Shown piece after piece: positions 1,123 to 7,570 of a stretch of DNA of 35,876 nt; position 1 is the stretch's first letter, and each line of letters starts with the position of its first letter. The stretch is from Puniceicoccales bacterium. GTDB taxonomy: Bacteria; Verrucomicrobiota; Verrucomicrobiia; Opitutales; JAIRLM01. The notes beneath the pieces are model-generated. The model searched no databases, was not told the DNA's origin, and saw nothing but the letters and a program-made list of their open reading frames with translations. The stretch lies in the NCBI GenBank assembly GCA_031282565.1, contig JAITDL010000044.1, positions 1 through 35,876 of the forward strand. The letters are read 5' to 3'. The position numbers and the translations under genes are program-made.

Positions 1123-1146
1123 GGCAAAGTGCTAGTAGTCTGGAAG

Positions 1147-2589
1147 ATGATGCTTGCCGATCCAGCAAAAATTTCCAACACTCGGACTGTGGCTGACGCG
1201 GCAGGAGAAAAATTGGATATTTCCATCCCCTGCAGTCGCTACCGCATTGTTCCGCGCGAACAATCTGGCTGTGAAGGAGTTCTGCGATTTTACATCGAGG
1301 AGGGGCGTGATTGTTTGGAGATCGCACACGAGCTCCGCTTCATCTGGGGGCTGGATGCGATGTTCGTTCAAACTCCGCTGGAAGAATTTGCAAAACATTG
1401 GGAAAGCTTTACCGCCACGCTCCCAAAGGGCGATTGCGCGTGTGACGGCGCTGATGTTTTTCAAAATGTTGGAGTTGAGCCATCTGCATTGAGTAGGATG
1501 CTTGGCAATGTTTTCATCCGCGCCGTGAATTCGACCGCATCGGATATCCATTTTGAAAGTTTAGAATCAGCGTTTCTCATTCGCACGCGGGTAGATGGCA
1601 CATTGCGCGAGGAGGTGCGTCTGCCGGCGGAGATGTTGGCTCCGCTATCTGTCCTCCTTAAAACATTGGCCAAGTTAGACATAGCAGAGCATTTCATGCC
1701 GCAGGACGGACGATTTGGGCTTAAAATTGGCGGCGTGAGCGTGGATTTTCGCATCTCGGTCCTGCCGACCAAGTTCGGTGAAAGCATCGTGCTGCGCGTT
1801 CTCGATCGCCGCAGACTTTTCCACGGTCTAGGTGACCTATCAATCGATCCCGCAACTGTTTCGCGAATTCGAGGAGCGATCTCGGCGCAGTCTGGGCTTT
1901 TTTTGGTCACGGGGCCAACTGGCAGCGGGAAGACGACGACGCTCTACGCGGCGCTTGGCGAAATGGATCGCGGCAGCATAAAAGTGCTAACTATCGAAGA
2001 CCCAATTGAATACGAACTGCAAAATTGCATGCAGGCGTCCGTCGATTTGCCGATCGGCCGCACATTTTCGGCGGTCCTGCGCTCATTTCTGCGCCACGAC
2101 CCTGACAAAATTTTTATTGGTGAAGTCCGCGACGAAGAAACTGCACAAATCGCGCTCAGAGCGGCACTTACGGGCCATCTTGTCATTAGCACGCTGCATA
2201 CGGCGACGCCGCAGGAGGCCATTGTGCGGCTCGTTGAGATGGGATTGGAGAAAAATTTGCTAATCAGCTGTTTGCGTGGCGTGTTGAATCAGAGATTGTT
2301 GCGGCGCAATTGCGCACACTGTTCGACGGAGCATGTGGTCGATGGCAAGTTGCCTCAACAGCTTAACATGTTAAACGGGAAGAAGCTTCGCCGCGGCACT
2401 GGATGCAAGCACTGCGGTGGAAGCGGTTACGAAGGGCGGCGAGCATTTTTTGAATTTCTTTCAATTGAAGAGCTTACGACTGATTCAAACTGCCACCTTG
2501 GCACAATGGTCGCCGAAGGTTTGGAGGCAGTTATCGGCGGAGATATTGCCCTTGAGGAATTTATGAATCAAATGCCATGGAATCGCTAA
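1147..2589 (+). CDS. gspE: Type II secretion / type IV pilus assembly ATPase (GspE/PilB family)
   Basis: Walker A VTGPTGSGKTTTLYAAL, an Asp box and Walker B (KIFIGEVRDEETA), a His box (LVISTLHT), and a tetracysteine cluster CAHC...CKHCGGSGYEGR. The N-terminal region resembles the T2SSE_N domain. The longest ORF starts at GTG 1129, and ATG 1147/1150 is the more likely start. Only 24 nt separate it from the divergent GT9 start. Confidence 0.9.
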   Translation: MMLADPAKISNTRTVADAAGEKLDISIPCSRYRIVPREQSGCEGVLRFYIEEGRDCLEIAHELRFIWGLDAMFVQTPLEEFAKHWESFTATLPKGDCACDGADVFQNVGVEPSALSRMLGNVFIRAVNSTASDIHFESLESAFLIRTRVDGTLREEVRLPAEMLAPLSVLLKTLAKLDIAEHFMPQDGRFGLKIGGVSVDFRISVLPTKFGESIVLRVLDRRRLFHGLGDLSIDPATVSRIRGAISAQSGLFLVTGPTGSGKTTTLYAALGEMDRGSIKVLTIEDPIEYELQNCMQASVDLPIGRTFSAVLRSFLRHDPDKIFIGEVRDEETAQIALRAALTGHLVISTLHTATPQEAIVRLVEMGLEKNLLISCLRGVLNQRLLRRNCAHCSTEHVVDGKLPQQLNMLNGKKLRRGTGCKHCGGSGYEGRRAFFEFLSIEELTTDSNCHLGTMVAEGLEAVIGGDIALEEFMNQMPWNR

Positions 2590-3809
2590 AAAAATTCACC
2601 TATTTTGGCCGAGGCAGTGGCGGTGGCTATGCGTGTGGAGAGTTGATGGCGAAGGACATGGCGGACGCTCGCCGCATTCTTTCCGAACGGCGCATTGCCA
2701 TTGATTTTTTGGCGGAGAAGAAATTGTCGCTGTGGCGGCGCAATTTGCACTTCGGAAAAAAAACTCGCGTAAGTGCCGAGCAGCTAGTGTCTTTTACTAG
2801 ACAGCTTGCGCTCCTGCTCCGCGCTGGAATTCATCTGATCGATGCGCTAGAGATGTTGGGGCAGAGGGACAAAAAGTTGCCGCTTGCCGGTATTTTGCAA
2901 TCCGTTGCAGCGGAGGTGCGTGCCGGGCGGTTTTTGTGCGAGGCCATGGAGTTGCATCCCAATGTTTTCAATGAGACATATAGAAATCTCGTGCGCGCGG
3001 GGGAGGCGTCCGGCGATTTAGCTGTTGTGCTGGAGTCGATTGCGTCAGCCCGTGGCCGCGAGCTGCGCAGTAAGACGAGGGCCGTGTCGGCATTAATTTA
3101 TCCTGTAACTGTCTTAGTGGTAGCACTTTTGGCCATAATGTTCCTCACTGGACGTGTCATCCCGCGTTTCCAGAATGTAATCCAGGGCGACGGTTCCACG
3201 ATGGCCATGCCGACCGTCACCAGGGTTGTGATGTCATTTTGTCAATTTATTAGGACGCAGCAACTTAGGATCTTTTTTTCGCTAATTGCAATCCCGCTCG
3301 CAATTGCACTATGGGCAAAAACGGAGCGGGGGCGCAAACTTTGTTCGGCGGCGATATTGCGCATACCGTTGCTGGGGAAGCTGATACTGCGGCAAAATCT
3401 CGTACTATTTTTCCGCACATTCGGGTCCGTCCTCGGCCACGGAGTCCCCTTCTCCGAGTCCCTCAGACTCTCCTGCCGTGCAGTCTCCAACGCAGCACTG
3501 CGCAACTATTTCGAAATCATCACCATCCGCGCCGGAGAGGGCGTTCCCCTCGGCGAGCTCCTCGCACAGACAGCCACAATCCCCGCATCGGTCCGCGGAC
3601 TTATCGCCGTTGGAGAGCGAAGCGGAACTCTCGCTGTCATGGCTACTTACGCCGCAGACATCCTCGAAGAAGAGCTTGGCAATGCCGTCGACCGCGTCTC
3701 CGCAATCCTGCAGCCTGCAACAATTCTCATCCTCGCCGGCGCCGTTGCCATCGTCGCTGCAGCTATGTTCCTCCCCATGACTCAGATGATCCAGCTCCGC
3801 TCCATTTGA
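2577..3809 (+). CDS. gspF: Type II secretion / type IV pilus platform protein (GspF/PilC family)
   Basis: 410 aa with two T2SS-F repeats (...LVSFTRQLALLLRAGIHLIDALE... and ...LFFRTFGSVLGHGVPFSESL...GLIAVGERSGTL...), three hydrophobic segments and a typical C-terminal FLPMTQMIQL. It overlaps the gspE stop by 13 nt, which suggests an operon. Confidence 0.9.
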   Translation: MESLKKFTYFGRGSGGGYACGELMAKDMADARRILSERRIAIDFLAEKKLSLWRRNLHFGKKTRVSAEQLVSFTRQLALLLRAGIHLIDALEMLGQRDKKLPLAGILQSVAAEVRAGRFLCEAMELHPNVFNETYRNLVRAGEASGDLAVVLESIASARGRELRSKTRAVSALIYPVTVLVVALLAIMFLTGRVIPRFQNVIQGDGSTMAMPTVTRVVMSFCQFIRTQQLRIFFSLIAIPLAIALWAKTERGRKLCSAAILRIPLLGKLILRQNLVLFFRTFGSVLGHGVPFSESLRLSCRAVSNAALRNYFEIITIRAGEGVPLGELLAQTATIPASVRGLIAVGERSGTLAVMATYAADILEEELGNAVDRVSAILQPATILILAGAVAIVAAAMFLPMTQMIQLRSI

Positions 3810-5720
3810 CTTTTCTTCGCCTTTGCGTCCACCGCCGCCACCGGGCCTCCCAGCTTCGGGCTTTTTCCCGTGCACAAGCAGCGTGCCATCCTCAAATTCG
3901 GCAACGTATCCTTCTCCGAGGAGCCACGATAGAGATTTTAGCAGCTCGTCTCTGTCGGCGCCTTCGGAGCCGAGTTTGATGCAGAGCTCCAGTTGGCCAA
4001 TGTATGGATTTTCTTCGATGATGGTGATAAGTTTCTCCAGCTCAGGCGTGAACGCGGTGCTGCTGTCGCGTATTTTTCGTGGAACCGGTGAGACGTAGGA
4101 TTGGCCGCGCTTGCCTAGTTTGTAGCTGTGTAGGTTGTGGCGCTTGAACTTACCGCGCATTGCGTTGGCTGTGTCGAGCGGGAAGCGCCGCTGCCTTTCG
4201 AGGCAATATTCAACAAATTCGCGGATGTCTCTGTCGCTGATGGCGCTAATGTCTTTGCCGGAAACTCGAACTGAATCTGCCTTTTTCAAGAAACGATCTG
4301 CGTTCTCCGCCAGGTAGATGCGCACGTCTCCGATGGAATTAAATATCTTTGGTTCCTCATGCTGTGAGCTTTCTGCGTTCTCGCACTGGGCTGAGATTGT
4401 TTCACTTTGCTCGGCAATTTTTGACGCTTGGTCTTCGCAGTCTGCAATTTCCGGTTCGTTGGCGGTTTCAATGGCATCTAAATTTTTCAGGCGGTACCTG
4501 TAGCGTTTTTTCATGCGCTCCAGCCACGTAGCTATGTCGGCGGCGTCTTTGCTGAACTCAAGTCGTTCGCAGTAGCGGTCGAATGGCATGTTGCGCACGT
4601 GACTTAGGTAGTGCTCGTTTAATAAGTCTTTGTAGCTGTGATGGTTTGGAGCGCCAATTATGATTTTCGTGAACGGGCAGCGGGCGACCTGTTGAAAATT
4701 TCCGCTGGGCGCGGCGCACTCCTCTTCGATTTTTTCAAAAACGCGATCCAAATGATTGCGTATGAGGTGGTCTAGAGCTCCATCGGCGCTGAAAAATGGC
4801 ACGCCGTCGAAGGCCGTTCTGTGGAATTGCCGCTGGCACTCCGGGTTGCGGCGTAGAGAAAATACAAATCGTTCCGGGTCAGCCAGAAACGTTTGGGCCA
4901 CGTGGAAAACATCGTAGGTCTTTCCCGATTTGCGGATCATCTCGGCAACGGGTGCGAACGCGTCGTCGGTGGCATAGAATGTCACCGTAAAGTCTTCGCG
5001 TGGAGGAGTAAATCGCCTGTTTGAATCGCGCTGTCCGCCTCTCCATTCGCGGCGAAATTGGTGTCCTTCAGCCGTCCCACTACGTTCCCGTTCGCGATTG
5101 AATCCGCCTCCGCCGCCGAAACTTGGCCTGCGACCGTAGCTTCCGTAGCCGCCGCCCTCCCGCCGTTCCTGGCCTGCGTGACGAAATCCGCCTTCCGCCG
5201 CCGGGCGCCGATCTTGGAAGCGATTTCCTCCGCCGTAACGTCGCTCGCCGTAGGAAGTTCTATCGCTTGGTTGCCCGTAGCCGGTTGGCCTTTCTCCGTC
5301 GCGTGCACCGCGGTCAAAGGGAGCCCTGCCACGGCTAAATGTACTTCTGCCGAAACTGCTTGGTCCGTCTCCAGTCCGCCGCTGTCCGCCGCCAAACTGC
5401 TGTCCCTGCCCCTGCCCCTGGAATCTGTTGCCGCCGCCGGCATAATCCCTTCTGCCGCCGAATGTTCTCCCTCCACGGAATTGTCCGCCACCCATTCCGC
5501 CGCCGGGCTGCCTCCTGAAACCGTCTCCGCGATCGCCGCCGCGTTGATTCGCGTAATTTCCGCCGCCACCGTTACTTGGCCTGCTTCGTTGCCGTTCGCC
5601 ACCGCGCTGAAATTCGCCACCTCTGTCCGATTCCCAGGCCGTGCCGAAAACAAAACTCGAGAAATCCTTCAAAAGGTCACCATTGCCATTTGCATTTTTA
5701 CTACCACCGCCGGCATCCAT
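3405..5720 (-). CDS. Orphan protein: N-terminal RGG/RG-rich low-complexity region plus an uncharacterised globular region. The C-terminal tail is encoded antisense to gspF.
   Basis: 771-codon ORF with an ATG at 5720. Residues about 31-236 are Gly/Arg-rich (DRGGEFQRGGERQR...FRGGRTFGGRRDYAGGGNRF...WRGGQRDSNRRF). Residues about 245-630 have normal globular composition. No stop occurs before 3405, so the last ~135 codons overlap gspF on the opposite strand. The true 3' end is uncertain. Confidence 0.65.
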   Translation of the reverse strand: MDAGGGSKNANGNGDLLKDFSSFVFGTAWESDRGGEFQRGGERQRSRPSNGGGGNYANQRGGDRGDGFRRQPGGGMGGGQFRGGRTFGGRRDYAGGGNRFQGQGQGQQFGGGQRRTGDGPSSFGRSTFSRGRAPFDRGARDGERPTGYGQPSDRTSYGERRYGGGNRFQDRRPAAEGGFRHAGQERREGGGYGSYGRRPSFGGGGGFNRERERSGTAEGHQFRREWRGGQRDSNRRFTPPREDFTVTFYATDDAFAPVAEMIRKSGKTYDVFHVAQTFLADPERFVFSLRRNPECQRQFHRTAFDGVPFFSADGALDHLIRNHLDRVFEKIEEECAAPSGNFQQVARCPFTKIIIGAPNHHSYKDLLNEHYLSHVRNMPFDRYCERLEFSKDAADIATWLERMKKRYRYRLKNLDAIETANEPEIADCEDQASKIAEQSETISAQCENAESSQHEEPKIFNSIGDVRIYLAENADRFLKKADSVRVSGKDISAISDRDIREFVEYCLERQRRFPLDTANAMRGKFKRHNLHSYKLGKRGQSYVSPVPRKIRDSSTAFTPELEKLITIIEENPYIGQLELCIKLGSEGADRDELLKSLSWLLGEGYVAEFEDGTLLVHGKKPEAGRPGGGGGRKGEEKSNGAELDHLSHGEEHSCSDDGNGAGEDENCCRLQDCGDAVDGIAKLFFEDVCGVSSHDSESSASLSNGDKSADRCGDCGCLCEELAEGNALSGADGDDFEIVAQCCVGDCTAGESEGLGEGDSVAEDGPECAEK
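5013..5630 (-). repeat. Low-complexity GC-rich (ccgccgcc-type) DNA encoding the RGG/RG-rich region
   Basis: The plus strand is a C-rich simple sequence (ccgcctccgccgccg, ccgccgccgg and similar). All six frames are open here, which produces shadow ORFs 4982-5653(-) and 5058-5825(+). Confidence 0.7.
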
Positions 5721-5839
5721 GGTGCCGATTTAATTGGCCGCCGTTTGAGTTTTGCGAGCACAAAACGTAGCATTTTTGACGAATCTTCGTTTCTTTTTCC
5801 TTGCCATCGCTTTTTTGCTTTTTGAAGTGGCCAAGTCGT

Positions 5840-5921
5840 GCTCAGGTGGTGGAATCGGTAGACACACACGTTTGAGGGGCGTGTGCCGCAAGGCGTATGG
5901 GTTCGAGTCCCATCTTGAGCA
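5840..5921 (+). tRNA. tRNA-Leu (anticodon GAG), class II with a long variable arm
   Basis: Hand-folded cloverleaf. Acceptor GCTCAGG/CTTGAGC (one G-U pair). D arm GTG-GAATCGGTAGA-CAC. Anticodon arm CACGT-TTGAGGG-GCGTG (T33, GAG at 34-36, G37). 13-nt variable arm TGCC-GCAA-GGCGT. T arm ATGGG-TTCGAGT-CCCAT. Discriminator A. CCA is not fully encoded (ACCG). Confidence 0.93.
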
Positions 5922-5977
5922 CCGATAAGTTGTTGGCTTTGAGTAAGTTGTGCGCCGTTCATCGGCCTGCGCCGCTC

Positions 5978-7570
5978 CTAGCAGGGATCAACGACGGTTT
6001 TTTCGCAAATGGTTTTCGGAGAGATGCCGATCTCCTTTCGTATGTAGCCAAGGCTTTTCATAAATTTTGCCGGGTCGGCCGTGAAAATGCAAAATTCCAC
6101 CTCGCTGCGACTCCGTTTGCCGCCGCATTTTGAAAATTTCGGCCCGCTCCATTGGCAATCGGTTAGGTTGTTAAGGGCGCTACCCCAGCGAGTTGCGAAA
6201 TTTTTTAGCCCATCCCCATCGCCGCTGGAAAAATTTTGCACAACTAGGTGGCGGTACGGAGGATAGCCCAATTGGCGACGGGCGACCAATTCCTCTTCGC
6301 AGAATGACGTGCGACTGCCGCCTAGAAAATGTTTCAGCGGTGCGCATTCTGGCTTAGTTGTTTGCAGAAGAAGTTCTCCACCTTCGCCGATGGCGTCGAA
6401 AATGCGCCATAGCAGTTGGTGTGCCCGTTCGTTACTGCGAAAACTACGTCCACAGAATAGGTTATCGCCGTCGAGAAGGGCCACGGTGGCTGGACCTATG
6501 CGTTCGATTGCTGCCGTGTCGATGTTTTCCGCCAGCAAGATATCGCAGTCCGCCGTGGCGTCTCCGCTGTCTGATGATCCGAAAATGGCCGATGGGAAGT
6601 ATTTGTGCAGAAGCGATTTCACTTTTCCGATGCCGGCACCGATCCTCCTAAGCCTTCCGCGACACCTATGGCAGCGCTGATTTGGCGGGCATTCCGTTTT
6701 GCAGCGGTTGCAGATGTGGCCTCCGCGCAGAGCGACGCAGGTGAGCGGAGTGTCGCACTGTGGACAGCGGAAAAGTTCTTCGCAGCGTGGACAATAGGAT
6801 CGCGAAAATCCTCCGCGCGGGTGGATCAGCAAATTTTTTTTGCCAGTTTCCATGGCATCCTCAATTTTTCGCAAAATCTGCGGCGAAAGCAGCCGCTTGC
6901 CGGGATCTAGCCGCGATTGGTCAATGATGGAAACCGTTGGTCCGCTGCGACATTCATCTTTTTCCACTTCCATTTTAATGGAGCCGCAGATCGCAGCGTG
7001 GTACATCTCGACGGAAGGAGATTGGCTCAGCAGCAGGCATTTGATGTTCTCCAGTTTTGCCCGCTCAATGGCCACATCTCTGCAGTGGAAGTGCATGCCG
7101 TGGCGGCTGTGGAAATGGGCTGGATTTTCTTCGCCGCAAACAACTATGGCGCAGAGATTTGCCGCCGGAAGAAACACCGCCGGACCGGTGCCAACTACAA
7201 TGGAAATTTCCGATGAGCGGAACCCGTTGAGAACGCTGTCGCGTTCACACTCTTCCATGGCGCCGTGCCATTTCGCAACGGAAACGCCGGGGCAGGATTC
7301 GCGAATGACCTCGAAAAAATGATCTACTTCTCCGCTACTTTCGTGGAGCAACAGCAGCTGACAATTAACATTAATCTTGCGCGCTGTCGCCGAACAATCC
7401 ATCTGGAGCGACAGGATGAGGTGGTCTCTTAGTGTTTGGTGCGTGCGGGTACGAGACGGTTGTATCAATTCCATCAGCAGGCGCAGGCTGTCTGCCGGCT
7501 CCTCTAAGCGGTCTTTCATCAATGACCTGGACCCTACCAGTAGCGTTAGCGTTTTCTGGGAGTTGGTCAT
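5978..7570 (-). CDS. priA: PriA-like primosomal protein N' with degenerate helicase motifs and no N-terminal DNA-binding domains
   Basis: 530 aa. It has the PriA-specific Cys-rich zinc insert CPRCEELFRCPQCDTPLTCVALRGGHICNRCKTECPPNQRCHRCRG. It also shows collinear similarity to PriA lobes 1 and 2 and the C-terminal domain (...IVVGTGPAVFLP...CRDVAIERAKL...LLSQSPSVEMY...LLIHPRGGF...GELLLQTTKPE...RRQLGYPPY). See the findings for the motif degeneration. Confidence 0.75.
   Translation of the reverse strand: MTNSQKTLTLLVGSRSLMKDRLEEPADSLRLLMELIQPSRTRTHQTLRDHLILSLQMDCSATARKINVNCQLLLLHESSGEVDHFFEVIRESCPGVSVAKWHGAMEECERDSVLNGFRSSEISIVVGTGPAVFLPAANLCAIVVCGEENPAHFHSRHGMHFHCRDVAIERAKLENIKCLLLSQSPSVEMYHAAICGSIKMEVEKDECRSGPTVSIIDQSRLDPGKRLLSPQILRKIEDAMETGKKNLLIHPRGGFSRSYCPRCEELFRCPQCDTPLTCVALRGGHICNRCKTECPPNQRCHRCRGRLRRIGAGIGKVKSLLHKYFPSAIFGSSDSGDATADCDILLAENIDTAAIERIGPATVALLDGDNLFCGRSFRSNERAHQLLWRIFDAIGEGGELLLQTTKPECAPLKHFLGGSRTSFCEEELVARRQLGYPPYRHLVVQNFSSGDGDGLKNFATRWGSALNNLTDCQWSGPKFSKCGGKRSRSEVEFCIFTADPAKFMKSLGYIRKEIGISPKTICEKTVVDPC

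Follow-up and report, generated by a model that had tools for sequence, protein, structure and literature searches.

Silent sites of a gspF gene as a probable code for the acidic tail of an opposite-strand protein in a Puniceicoccales genome

The locus and the two convergent genes

The window analyzed here is the whole 35,876-nt stretch of contig JAITDL010000044.1 from a Puniceicoccales bacterium, the genome of which (G000 below) is a draft of ~1.04 Mb in 96 contigs. Near one end of this window, a gspE-gspF pair on the plus strand converges with a long minus-strand gene (Table 1), and gspF shares 405 nt with the minus-strand frame. Because 2577 and 3405 are both multiples of 3, the codons of the two strands pair one to one, with codon position 3 of gspF facing codon position 1 of the tail; Ser638 of the minus-strand protein (TCA) faces the gspF stop codon TGA. 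The coordinates and the codon-aligned register that a preliminary description of this DNA had assigned to the overlap were both confirmed.

Table 1. Genes, protein segments and sequence features around the convergent overlap
Feature	Position	Strand	Remarks
gspE-type secretion ATPase gene	1129..2589	+	PF00437 T2SSE, E 7e-102; leads the gspE-gspF pair
gspF/PilC-family inner-membrane platform protein gene, 410 aa	2577..3809	+	PF00482; intact, under purifying selection
Codon-usage switch and antisense stop	3396..3407	.	Best split at gspF codon 274; TAG opposite gspF CTA (codon 277), 3405-3407
Minus-strand ORF, 771 codons/aa	3405..5720	-	From the open-reading-frame list
Putative overprinted acidic tail, residues 638-771 plus stop	3405..3809	-	Antisense of gspF codons 277-411
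Gly/Lys-rich short linker, residues 624-637	3810..3851	-	Sole tail stretch outside gspF
Winged-helix domain (predicted), residues 552-623	3852..4067	-	Final folded domain; pLDDT >90; ends in the family motif
Conserved globular core, residues 246-623	3852..4985	-	Predicted confidently by AlphaFold, pLDDT >90
Arg/Gly-rich disordered N-terminal region, residues 1-245	4986..5720	-	66 Gly, 43 Arg, net charge +18

The product of gspF matches PF00482 (T2SS-F) in two stretches (E 2.8e-44) and is encoded next to a GspE-type ATPase, the two features by which a GspF/PilC platform protein is recognized, and the gspE-gspF gene order is unchanged in every relative examined. Its C-terminal residue coincides with that of its orthologues, and the overlap therefore stems solely from the run-on of the minus-strand frame. 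In the overlapped part, comparisons of species pairs gave dN values of 0.07-0.27 versus dS values of 0.44-1.3.

The minus-strand gene belongs to a conserved, Verrucomicrobiota-wide protein family for which neither Pfam nor NCBIfam has a model. Searches of these two collections assigned the protein to no family, the NCBIfam match being at chance level only, and a search of the ESM Atlas returned unnamed verrucomicrobial clusters only. Its database homologues are labelled Puniceicoccales and Opitutaceae. Both partners of the overlap are independently supported, gspF by PF00482 and the minus-strand gene by homologues in 38 of 41 related genomes together with its confidently predicted core. Two short motifs are conserved in the protein, namely F-x-F-x-T-A-W in the N-terminal region and W-L-x-x-E-G-Y-V-x-E, the family motif that closes the winged helix. 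In the predicted model, the three-helix bundle and beta-hairpin wing of this last domain superpose on the solved winged helices of MecI, MarR, RPA32C and Z-alpha (VIA-align; Z 8-9.5, rmsd 1.6-2.4 A over 57-66 residues), and Foldseek gave similar matches for it; this is a likeness of fold only and does not imply function. Foldseek found nothing in the PDB at E <= 0.001, and the N-terminal folded domain, when folded alone, gave no structural match above Z 3.0. Weak Foldseek matches to the tandem winged-helix "kite" proteins Nse1/3, JetB, ScpB and MukE were also seen and are leads only.

Past the winged helix, residues 624-771 are predicted to be disordered (AlphaFold pLDDT 30-43) and carry a net charge of -28, and the part that lies opposite gspF contains 35 Asp and Glu versus 5 Lys and Arg. 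No alternative stop was found in the frame after the folded core. An acidic end is also a feature of the family at large. In other genera of the same family, as in distant homologues including those of free-living Opitutae, the protein ends 30-175 residues past W-L-x-x-E-G-Y-V-x-E in an acidic, low-complexity tail of its own (net charge -3 to -27), and in those other genera gspF lies on a different contig. In the genus of the present genome, only ~15-28 tail residues are separately encoded, and the remainder is written on gspF. Sequence comparison thus points to an acidic tail already present in the ancestor of the family, and this genus appears to have swapped its own tail for one overprinted on gspF. 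One metagenome scan for closer relatives returned only distant homologues, with 22-36% identity.

Codon choice in the overlapped part of gspF

The preliminary description had drawn attention to a change in codon usage just past the antisense stop, and this change was found to be both strong and sharply placed. The share of C-ending codons (C3) in gspF rises from 0.22 in the 276 upstream codons to 0.55 in the 134 overlapped codons, and in 30-codon windows it is 0.43-0.67 across the overlap and 0.10 directly outside it. The best split lies within 3 codons of the antisense stop. Leu codons change from TTG12/CTG8/CTT6/CTC6/CTA5/TTA3 upstream to CTC12/CTG2/CTT2 in the overlap, where CTC accounts for 12 of 16, and the Ala codon GCG, used 12 times upstream, is absent. 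When corrected for amino-acid content, this is the strongest within-gene C3 switch of the 514 genes in the genome (z 6.5). Genome-wide C3 is 0.30 and the 99.9th percentile of 135-codon windows is 0.556; the overlapped part of gspF ranks 8th of 22,226 windows overall and 1st for C3 at NTN codons (z 7.7 versus 4.6 for the next gene). Such a bias is thus not typical of many genes in this genome. The earlier caveat that C3-rich patches occur elsewhere was nonetheless right: ileS is a milder case (peak 0.48), and further C3-rich stretches are found in dnaK, rpsA, adhE, gyrB, an LptF/G permease, an MFS transporter and a Pmp-repeat protein. Highly expressed genes probably favor the C-ending codons, and the shift is therefore unlikely to be costly for gspF.

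What the shift does to the opposite strand was assessed in five species, namely this genome and four congeners (G001-G004), by simulations in which the synonymous codons of gspF were resampled with the ordinary usage of each species. The simulated antisense frames contained 3.5-6 stops and 10-22 Asp and Glu and had a net charge of +14 to -4, with a probability of being open of 0.001-0.02 per species (the five species are kin, and here and below the per-species P values are not fully independent). The real antisense frames of all five contain no stop and 29-38 Asp and Glu and have a net charge of -20 to -30.

Both properties can be traced to particular codons. The antisense-stop codons TTA, CTA and TCA do not occur among the Leu and Ser codons of the overlap (0/25 to 0/45, depending on the species), whereas 12-30% of the codons of other four-fold families there still end in A, a contrast with Leu and Ser that is significant in each case (Fisher P 0.0008-0.013); in G000, A-ending codons of these other families are even commoner in the overlap than upstream. 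The C3 rise likewise depends on the codon class. In the pooled gspF genes, C3 increases from 0.31 upstream to 0.67 in the overlap at NTN codons and from 0.43 to 0.58 at NCN codons, and the corresponding values are 0.54 and 0.57 at NGN codons and 0.23 and 0.28 at NAN codons. The three GC-richer species show no C3 rise at all in classes other than NTN and NCN, and the interaction between the C3 rise and NTN has a z of 3.7 over the three deep lineages G000, G001 and G003. Use of ATC, GTC, TTC and CTC, the codons that generate Asp or Glu on the other strand, increases in each of the five species, from 0.21-0.42 upstream to 0.62-0.78 in the overlap (P 2e-10 to 0.03), and that of codons generating Lys or Arg decreases from 0.25-0.36 to 0.08-0.16. 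In G000, NCG (antisense Arg) falls from 27/63 to 1/42 and NCA is kept or increased; a GC or C3 mutational patch would not produce this combination, which thus argues against such a patch.

None of these shifts was seen in eight control gspF orthologues from other genera, in which there is no overlap. In the same 134 codons, seven of the eight have 2-8 antisense stops, and the eighth, from G014, which is uniformly C3-rich, has none. A further comparison is provided by gspF alignment columns 259-275, which are overlapped only in G002-G004: A-ending NTN codons are present there in G000 (ATA three times) and in G001 (antisense stops), and there are almost none in G002-G004. Taken as sequence statistics, these patterns indicate that selection on the second frame is detectable beyond what the gspF frame imposes.

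Conservation of the overlap within the genus

A convergent, in-phase overlap is present in all four congeners, where it is 384 nt long in G001 and 459 nt long in the other three (G002-G004), and two database proteins, P0004 and P0006, carry a homologous tail when compared as proteins. Across the genus there are four different antisense stop positions, and at least 127 overlapped codons are open in every case (range 127-152). From the last folded domain to the gspF stop, each species has a linker of its own, different in both length and sequence. Because the synonymous sites of the upstream part of gspF are saturated between the deep lineages (pS 0.70-0.82), the overlap reflects long-term retention and not recent common descent. 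The comparison with relatives that had been proposed earlier, namely whether the minus-strand gene has a stop near 3.82 kb, has a clear outcome: such a stop is absent in 4/4 congeners and the long tail is kept.

What is retained is the character of the tail more than its sequence. Tail identity among congeners is 36-71%, slightly under that of the core; the tail is open and acidic in all five species, and its Cys residues and many further positions are not conserved. The question of a depressed synonymous rate in the 3' third of gspF has a similarly divided answer. Apparent synonymous divergence is lower in the overlap than upstream in 10/10 species pairs (e.g., 0.44 versus 0.79 for G000-G001), but this mostly reflects shared codon preference rather than site-by-site conservation, because within-amino-acid codon shuffles left a site-specific excess identity of only 0.04-0.10 (z 1-2.3 in deep pairs) that reaches marginal significance at best and is not clearly above that upstream. 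We therefore do not claim sequence-specific synonymous constraint. The small site-specific excess and the variable tail positions suggest that the constraint acts on composition and openness and not on sequence, as expected for a disordered region.

Dual coding, its alternatives and related systems

A frame that is open and conserved across the genus, a charge-specific shift in codon use that the outgroups lack and an acidic tail found throughout the family together argue that the 405-nt overlap is genuinely dual-coding and that the disordered acidic tail is under selection, a reading to which we assign a probability of about 0.8. Of the three explanations put forward in the preliminary description, a genuinely dual-coding segment is thus the one that the present results favor, given its conservation in 4/4 congeners and a charge-specific bias that is atypical of the genome. 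Translation of the tail would follow from the absence of any stop.

Under dual coding, the following course of events may be envisaged. In the ancestor of the genus, the gspEF pair would have come to lie convergent to the minus-strand gene; synteny around gspEF differs outside the genus. The gene would then have lost its own tail and stop, and its frame would have run into gspF. Since the gene lacks a stop beyond the winged helix, ribosomes would continue into the antisense of the final 127-152 gspF codons. As gspF encodes a hydrophobic membrane protein, it has many NTN codons, which become NAN on the other strand: the C-ending CTC, ATC, GTC and TTC yield Glu or Asp, and the G- and T-ending ones yield Gln, His, Lys or Asn. 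TTA, CTA and TCA yield stops. Selection on the tail may then have fixed the C-ending choices and purged the codons generating stops, Lys and Arg, and the outcome would be a tail of ~150 residues with a net charge of -20 to -30 in place of the separately encoded acidic tail of other family members. A membrane-protein gene would be an unusually good substrate for an acidic tail, because its three antisense-stop codons can be replaced synonymously and its C-ending NTN codons give Asp or Glu. As a broader reading, it seems reasonably probable that the ancestral acidic tail disappeared from the ~1-Mb genome of a bacterial lineage and that an equivalent was rebuilt there by overprinting a membrane-protein gene, with the silent gspF sites serving as a charge code. 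Because the protein combines the tail with an RG-rich, basic N-terminal region and a winged helix, we speculate that the most likely role of the tail is the electrostatic modulation of the basic, nucleic-acid-binding parts of the protein or self-regulation of binding.

The main alternative is that the high C3 of the 3' third of gspF has nothing to do with the other strand and stems from codon preference in translation, a mutation bias of the region or the like, that the loss of antisense stops is a coincidence, and that any tail produced is an unselected by-product. When a gene such as dnaK has a strong codon bias, a long antisense frame free of stops opposite it is a recognized kind of artefact (bioRxiv 10.1101/724807), represented in Pfam by PF10712, "NAD-specific glutamate dehydrogenase". 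Such shadow frames have the same -1 codon-aligned register as the gspF overlap, and in them antisense stops vanish mechanically once A-ending Leu and Ser codons are avoided; the dnaK gene of the present genome also has a stop-free antisense frame. C-ending codons are enriched in dnaK, rpsA and adhE as well, these three genes, gyrB and ileS contain C3-rich stretches in which antisense stops are few or absent, position-specific synonymous constraint is weak, and part of the C3 rise in G000 and G001 (logOR ~0.8-1.1 in non-NTN classes) could be unrelated to the tail. The bias in gspF, however, is not a whole-gene bias of the kind that produces shadow ORFs; it is restricted to the overlapped part, and no other gene of the genome switches as sharply. 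The bias is also specific for charge and stops, affecting NTN but not NGN or NAN codons and removing NCG but not NCA; its boundary shifts with the antisense stop between species; it is missing from the eight non-overlapped orthologues; and the antisense frame is no free-standing ORF but the continuation of a real gene for which there is no other stop. A compositional patch, the third of the earlier explanations, is thus rejected as sufficient on its own, and we regard it as unlikely.

A little less probable still is the idea that the tail is not produced because the transcript ends or translation aborts near the gspF stop, with the codon shift serving some purpose at the RNA level. Convergent transcription over ~400 nt is unusual, and there is one weak terminator-like hairpin at 4052-4071 on the plus strand, but terminator-like sites in 2400-6200 occur at chance level (6 found versus 6.4 expected), and nothing in a promoter and terminator scan of this region exceeded chance. 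Moreover, an mRNA ending without a stop would yield non-stop products, and a purpose at the RNA level predicts neither the Asp/Glu preference, nor the avoidance of Lys and Arg, nor the match to the acidic tails of the family. The earlier suggestion of an assembly indel or a lost stop near 3.82 kb, private to this genome, takes its only plausibility from the fragmented state of the 96-contig draft. Five species-level assemblies, obtained independently, and the proteins P0004 and P0006 all read through, with linkers that differ in length and sequence, and this explanation is rejected. Misannotation by a 3'-end extension (group iii of Palleja et al., 2008) was also considered and rejected, as orthologues carry tails of 30-175 aa past the same motif and the extension is conserved within the genus.

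The gspF case shares features with several known systems. Long antisense genes backed by expression and selection tests, such as olg1 and olg2 of Pseudomonas aeruginosa (PMC8850804) and ano, nog1 and others of E. coli O157:H7 (PMC5960689, PMC9927249, PMC4683798), also encode opposite-strand proteins over hundreds of bases, with overprinting and evidence from frame conservation. They are, however, young stand-alone ORFs embedded in an older gene, whereas the gspF case involves two old, conserved genes. In addition, only a C-terminal disordered tail is overprinted on gspF, where it substitutes for an ancestral, separately encoded one, and the signature is a charge-directed choice of synonymous codons in the host gene. 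Viral overprinted disordered proteins (PMC6195259, PMC3744397) resemble the present case in that the newer frame is of low complexity or disordered and its composition is carried by the silent sites of the older frame; the gspF case differs from them in residing in a cellular bacterial genome and in placing an acidic tail on the hydrophobic codons of a membrane protein.

With regard to orientation, Palleja et al. (2008) concluded that convergent genes are the only ones in which overlaps of more than 60 bp may be real and listed, out of 3,035 convergent overlaps, 54 candidates, most of them shared by very close species only (PMC2478687). The gspF overlap has the same convergent orientation, and its 384-459 nt far exceed the 60-bp cut-off for long overlaps in that survey, which gives size figures for co-directional error classes only. 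Unlike those candidates, it spans a genus with saturated synonymous sites, and the extended gene is no longer than its orthologues. Overlaps are already known to arise through the loss of a stop or by overprinting (PMC2268670). What is new relative to known antisense overprinting is the combination of two old genes, a genus-wide overlap of 384-459 nt, the replacement of an ancestral tail and charge-directed synonymous codons.

When long antisense overlaps are met in bacterial genomes, they are mostly written off as faulty annotation or as shadows of codon bias, and the ones that have been accepted involve young orphan ORFs. The present locus offers a natural experiment, with gspF available both with and without the overlap, a boundary that differs between species and an ancestral family tail that is separately encoded. 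It makes synonymous choices dictated by a second frame visible and indicates that selection can act on composition, that is, on charge and openness, and not on sequence. For annotators, this means that automatic trimming of such 3' extensions is unsafe, and for codon-usage and dN/dS analyses, that silent sites may be constrained by a second frame. A design rule for engineered convergent overlaps may also be derived, in which hydrophobic helices with C-ending codons are placed opposite an acidic disordered region. If the broader reading of a lost and rebuilt tail is correct, the locus would clearly exemplify, in a cellular genome, a dual coding that is compositional and has been maintained through a long stretch of evolution, and it would point to a way in which compact genomes might generally retain disordered regions.

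A search of this genome for convergent overlaps of at least 120 nt gave a single further case, 363 nt on contig C49, and its minus-strand ORF looks spurious; the gspF overlap is the longest convergent overlap that the genome contains.

Start and N-terminal part of the minus-strand protein

The conserved minus-strand protein has seven database entries, and six of them place the start at an internal GTG (V-T-F-Y-A-T-D-D), which omits the 245-residue Arg/Gly-rich N-terminus. The reading frame is nevertheless open, and an F-x-F-x-T-A-W motif at the N-terminus is kept across genera; the GTG start is probably a gene-caller error. In the N-terminal folded domain, Cys, Asn, His, and Tyr residues within R-C-P-x-T-K ... 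G-x-P-N-H-H-S-Y are invariant throughout the family. Structural comparison of this domain gave no match above Z 3.0, the weak matches being small zinc fingers, and the domain may have a new fold or may bind metal as a module.

Features and their coordinates (G000, source genome; C34 and C49, its contigs)
Feature	Location	Strand
Arg/Gly-rich N-terminus	window 4986-5720	-
N-terminal folded domain	window 4446-4985	-
Tail	window 3408-3809	-
gspE/gspF overlap, same direction, 13 nt	window 2577-2589	
dnaK (L086)	G000:C34:15737-17815	
Second in-phase convergent ORF overlap of the genome, 363 nt	G000:C49:30085-32073 (beyond window)	

Cysteines of the tail

The tail overprinted on gspF contains 13 Cys residues in the source genome and 12 in its congener G001, in stretches such as C-G-D-C-G-C-L-C and Q-C-C-V-G-D-C, but only 3-5 in the other three species (G002-G004). 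These residues arise from GCA and ACA codons of gspF on the opposite strand. Because they are not conserved, they probably do not form a metal site and are simply tolerated as a by-product.

Control and comparison loci

The C-terminal third of dnaK, a classic case of a codon-bias "shadow ORF," served as the negative control for the gspF antisense tail: its C frequency at third codon positions is 0.55, and a stretch of approximately 135 codons lacks antisense-stop codons. In the C49 overlap, a plus-strand ORF of 511 aa faces a minus-strand ORF of 271 aa; the latter is rich in Arg, Ser, and Leu and looks non-coding, and third-position C rises only mildly in the plus-strand gene.

The short gspE/gspF overlap is ordinary operon coupling.
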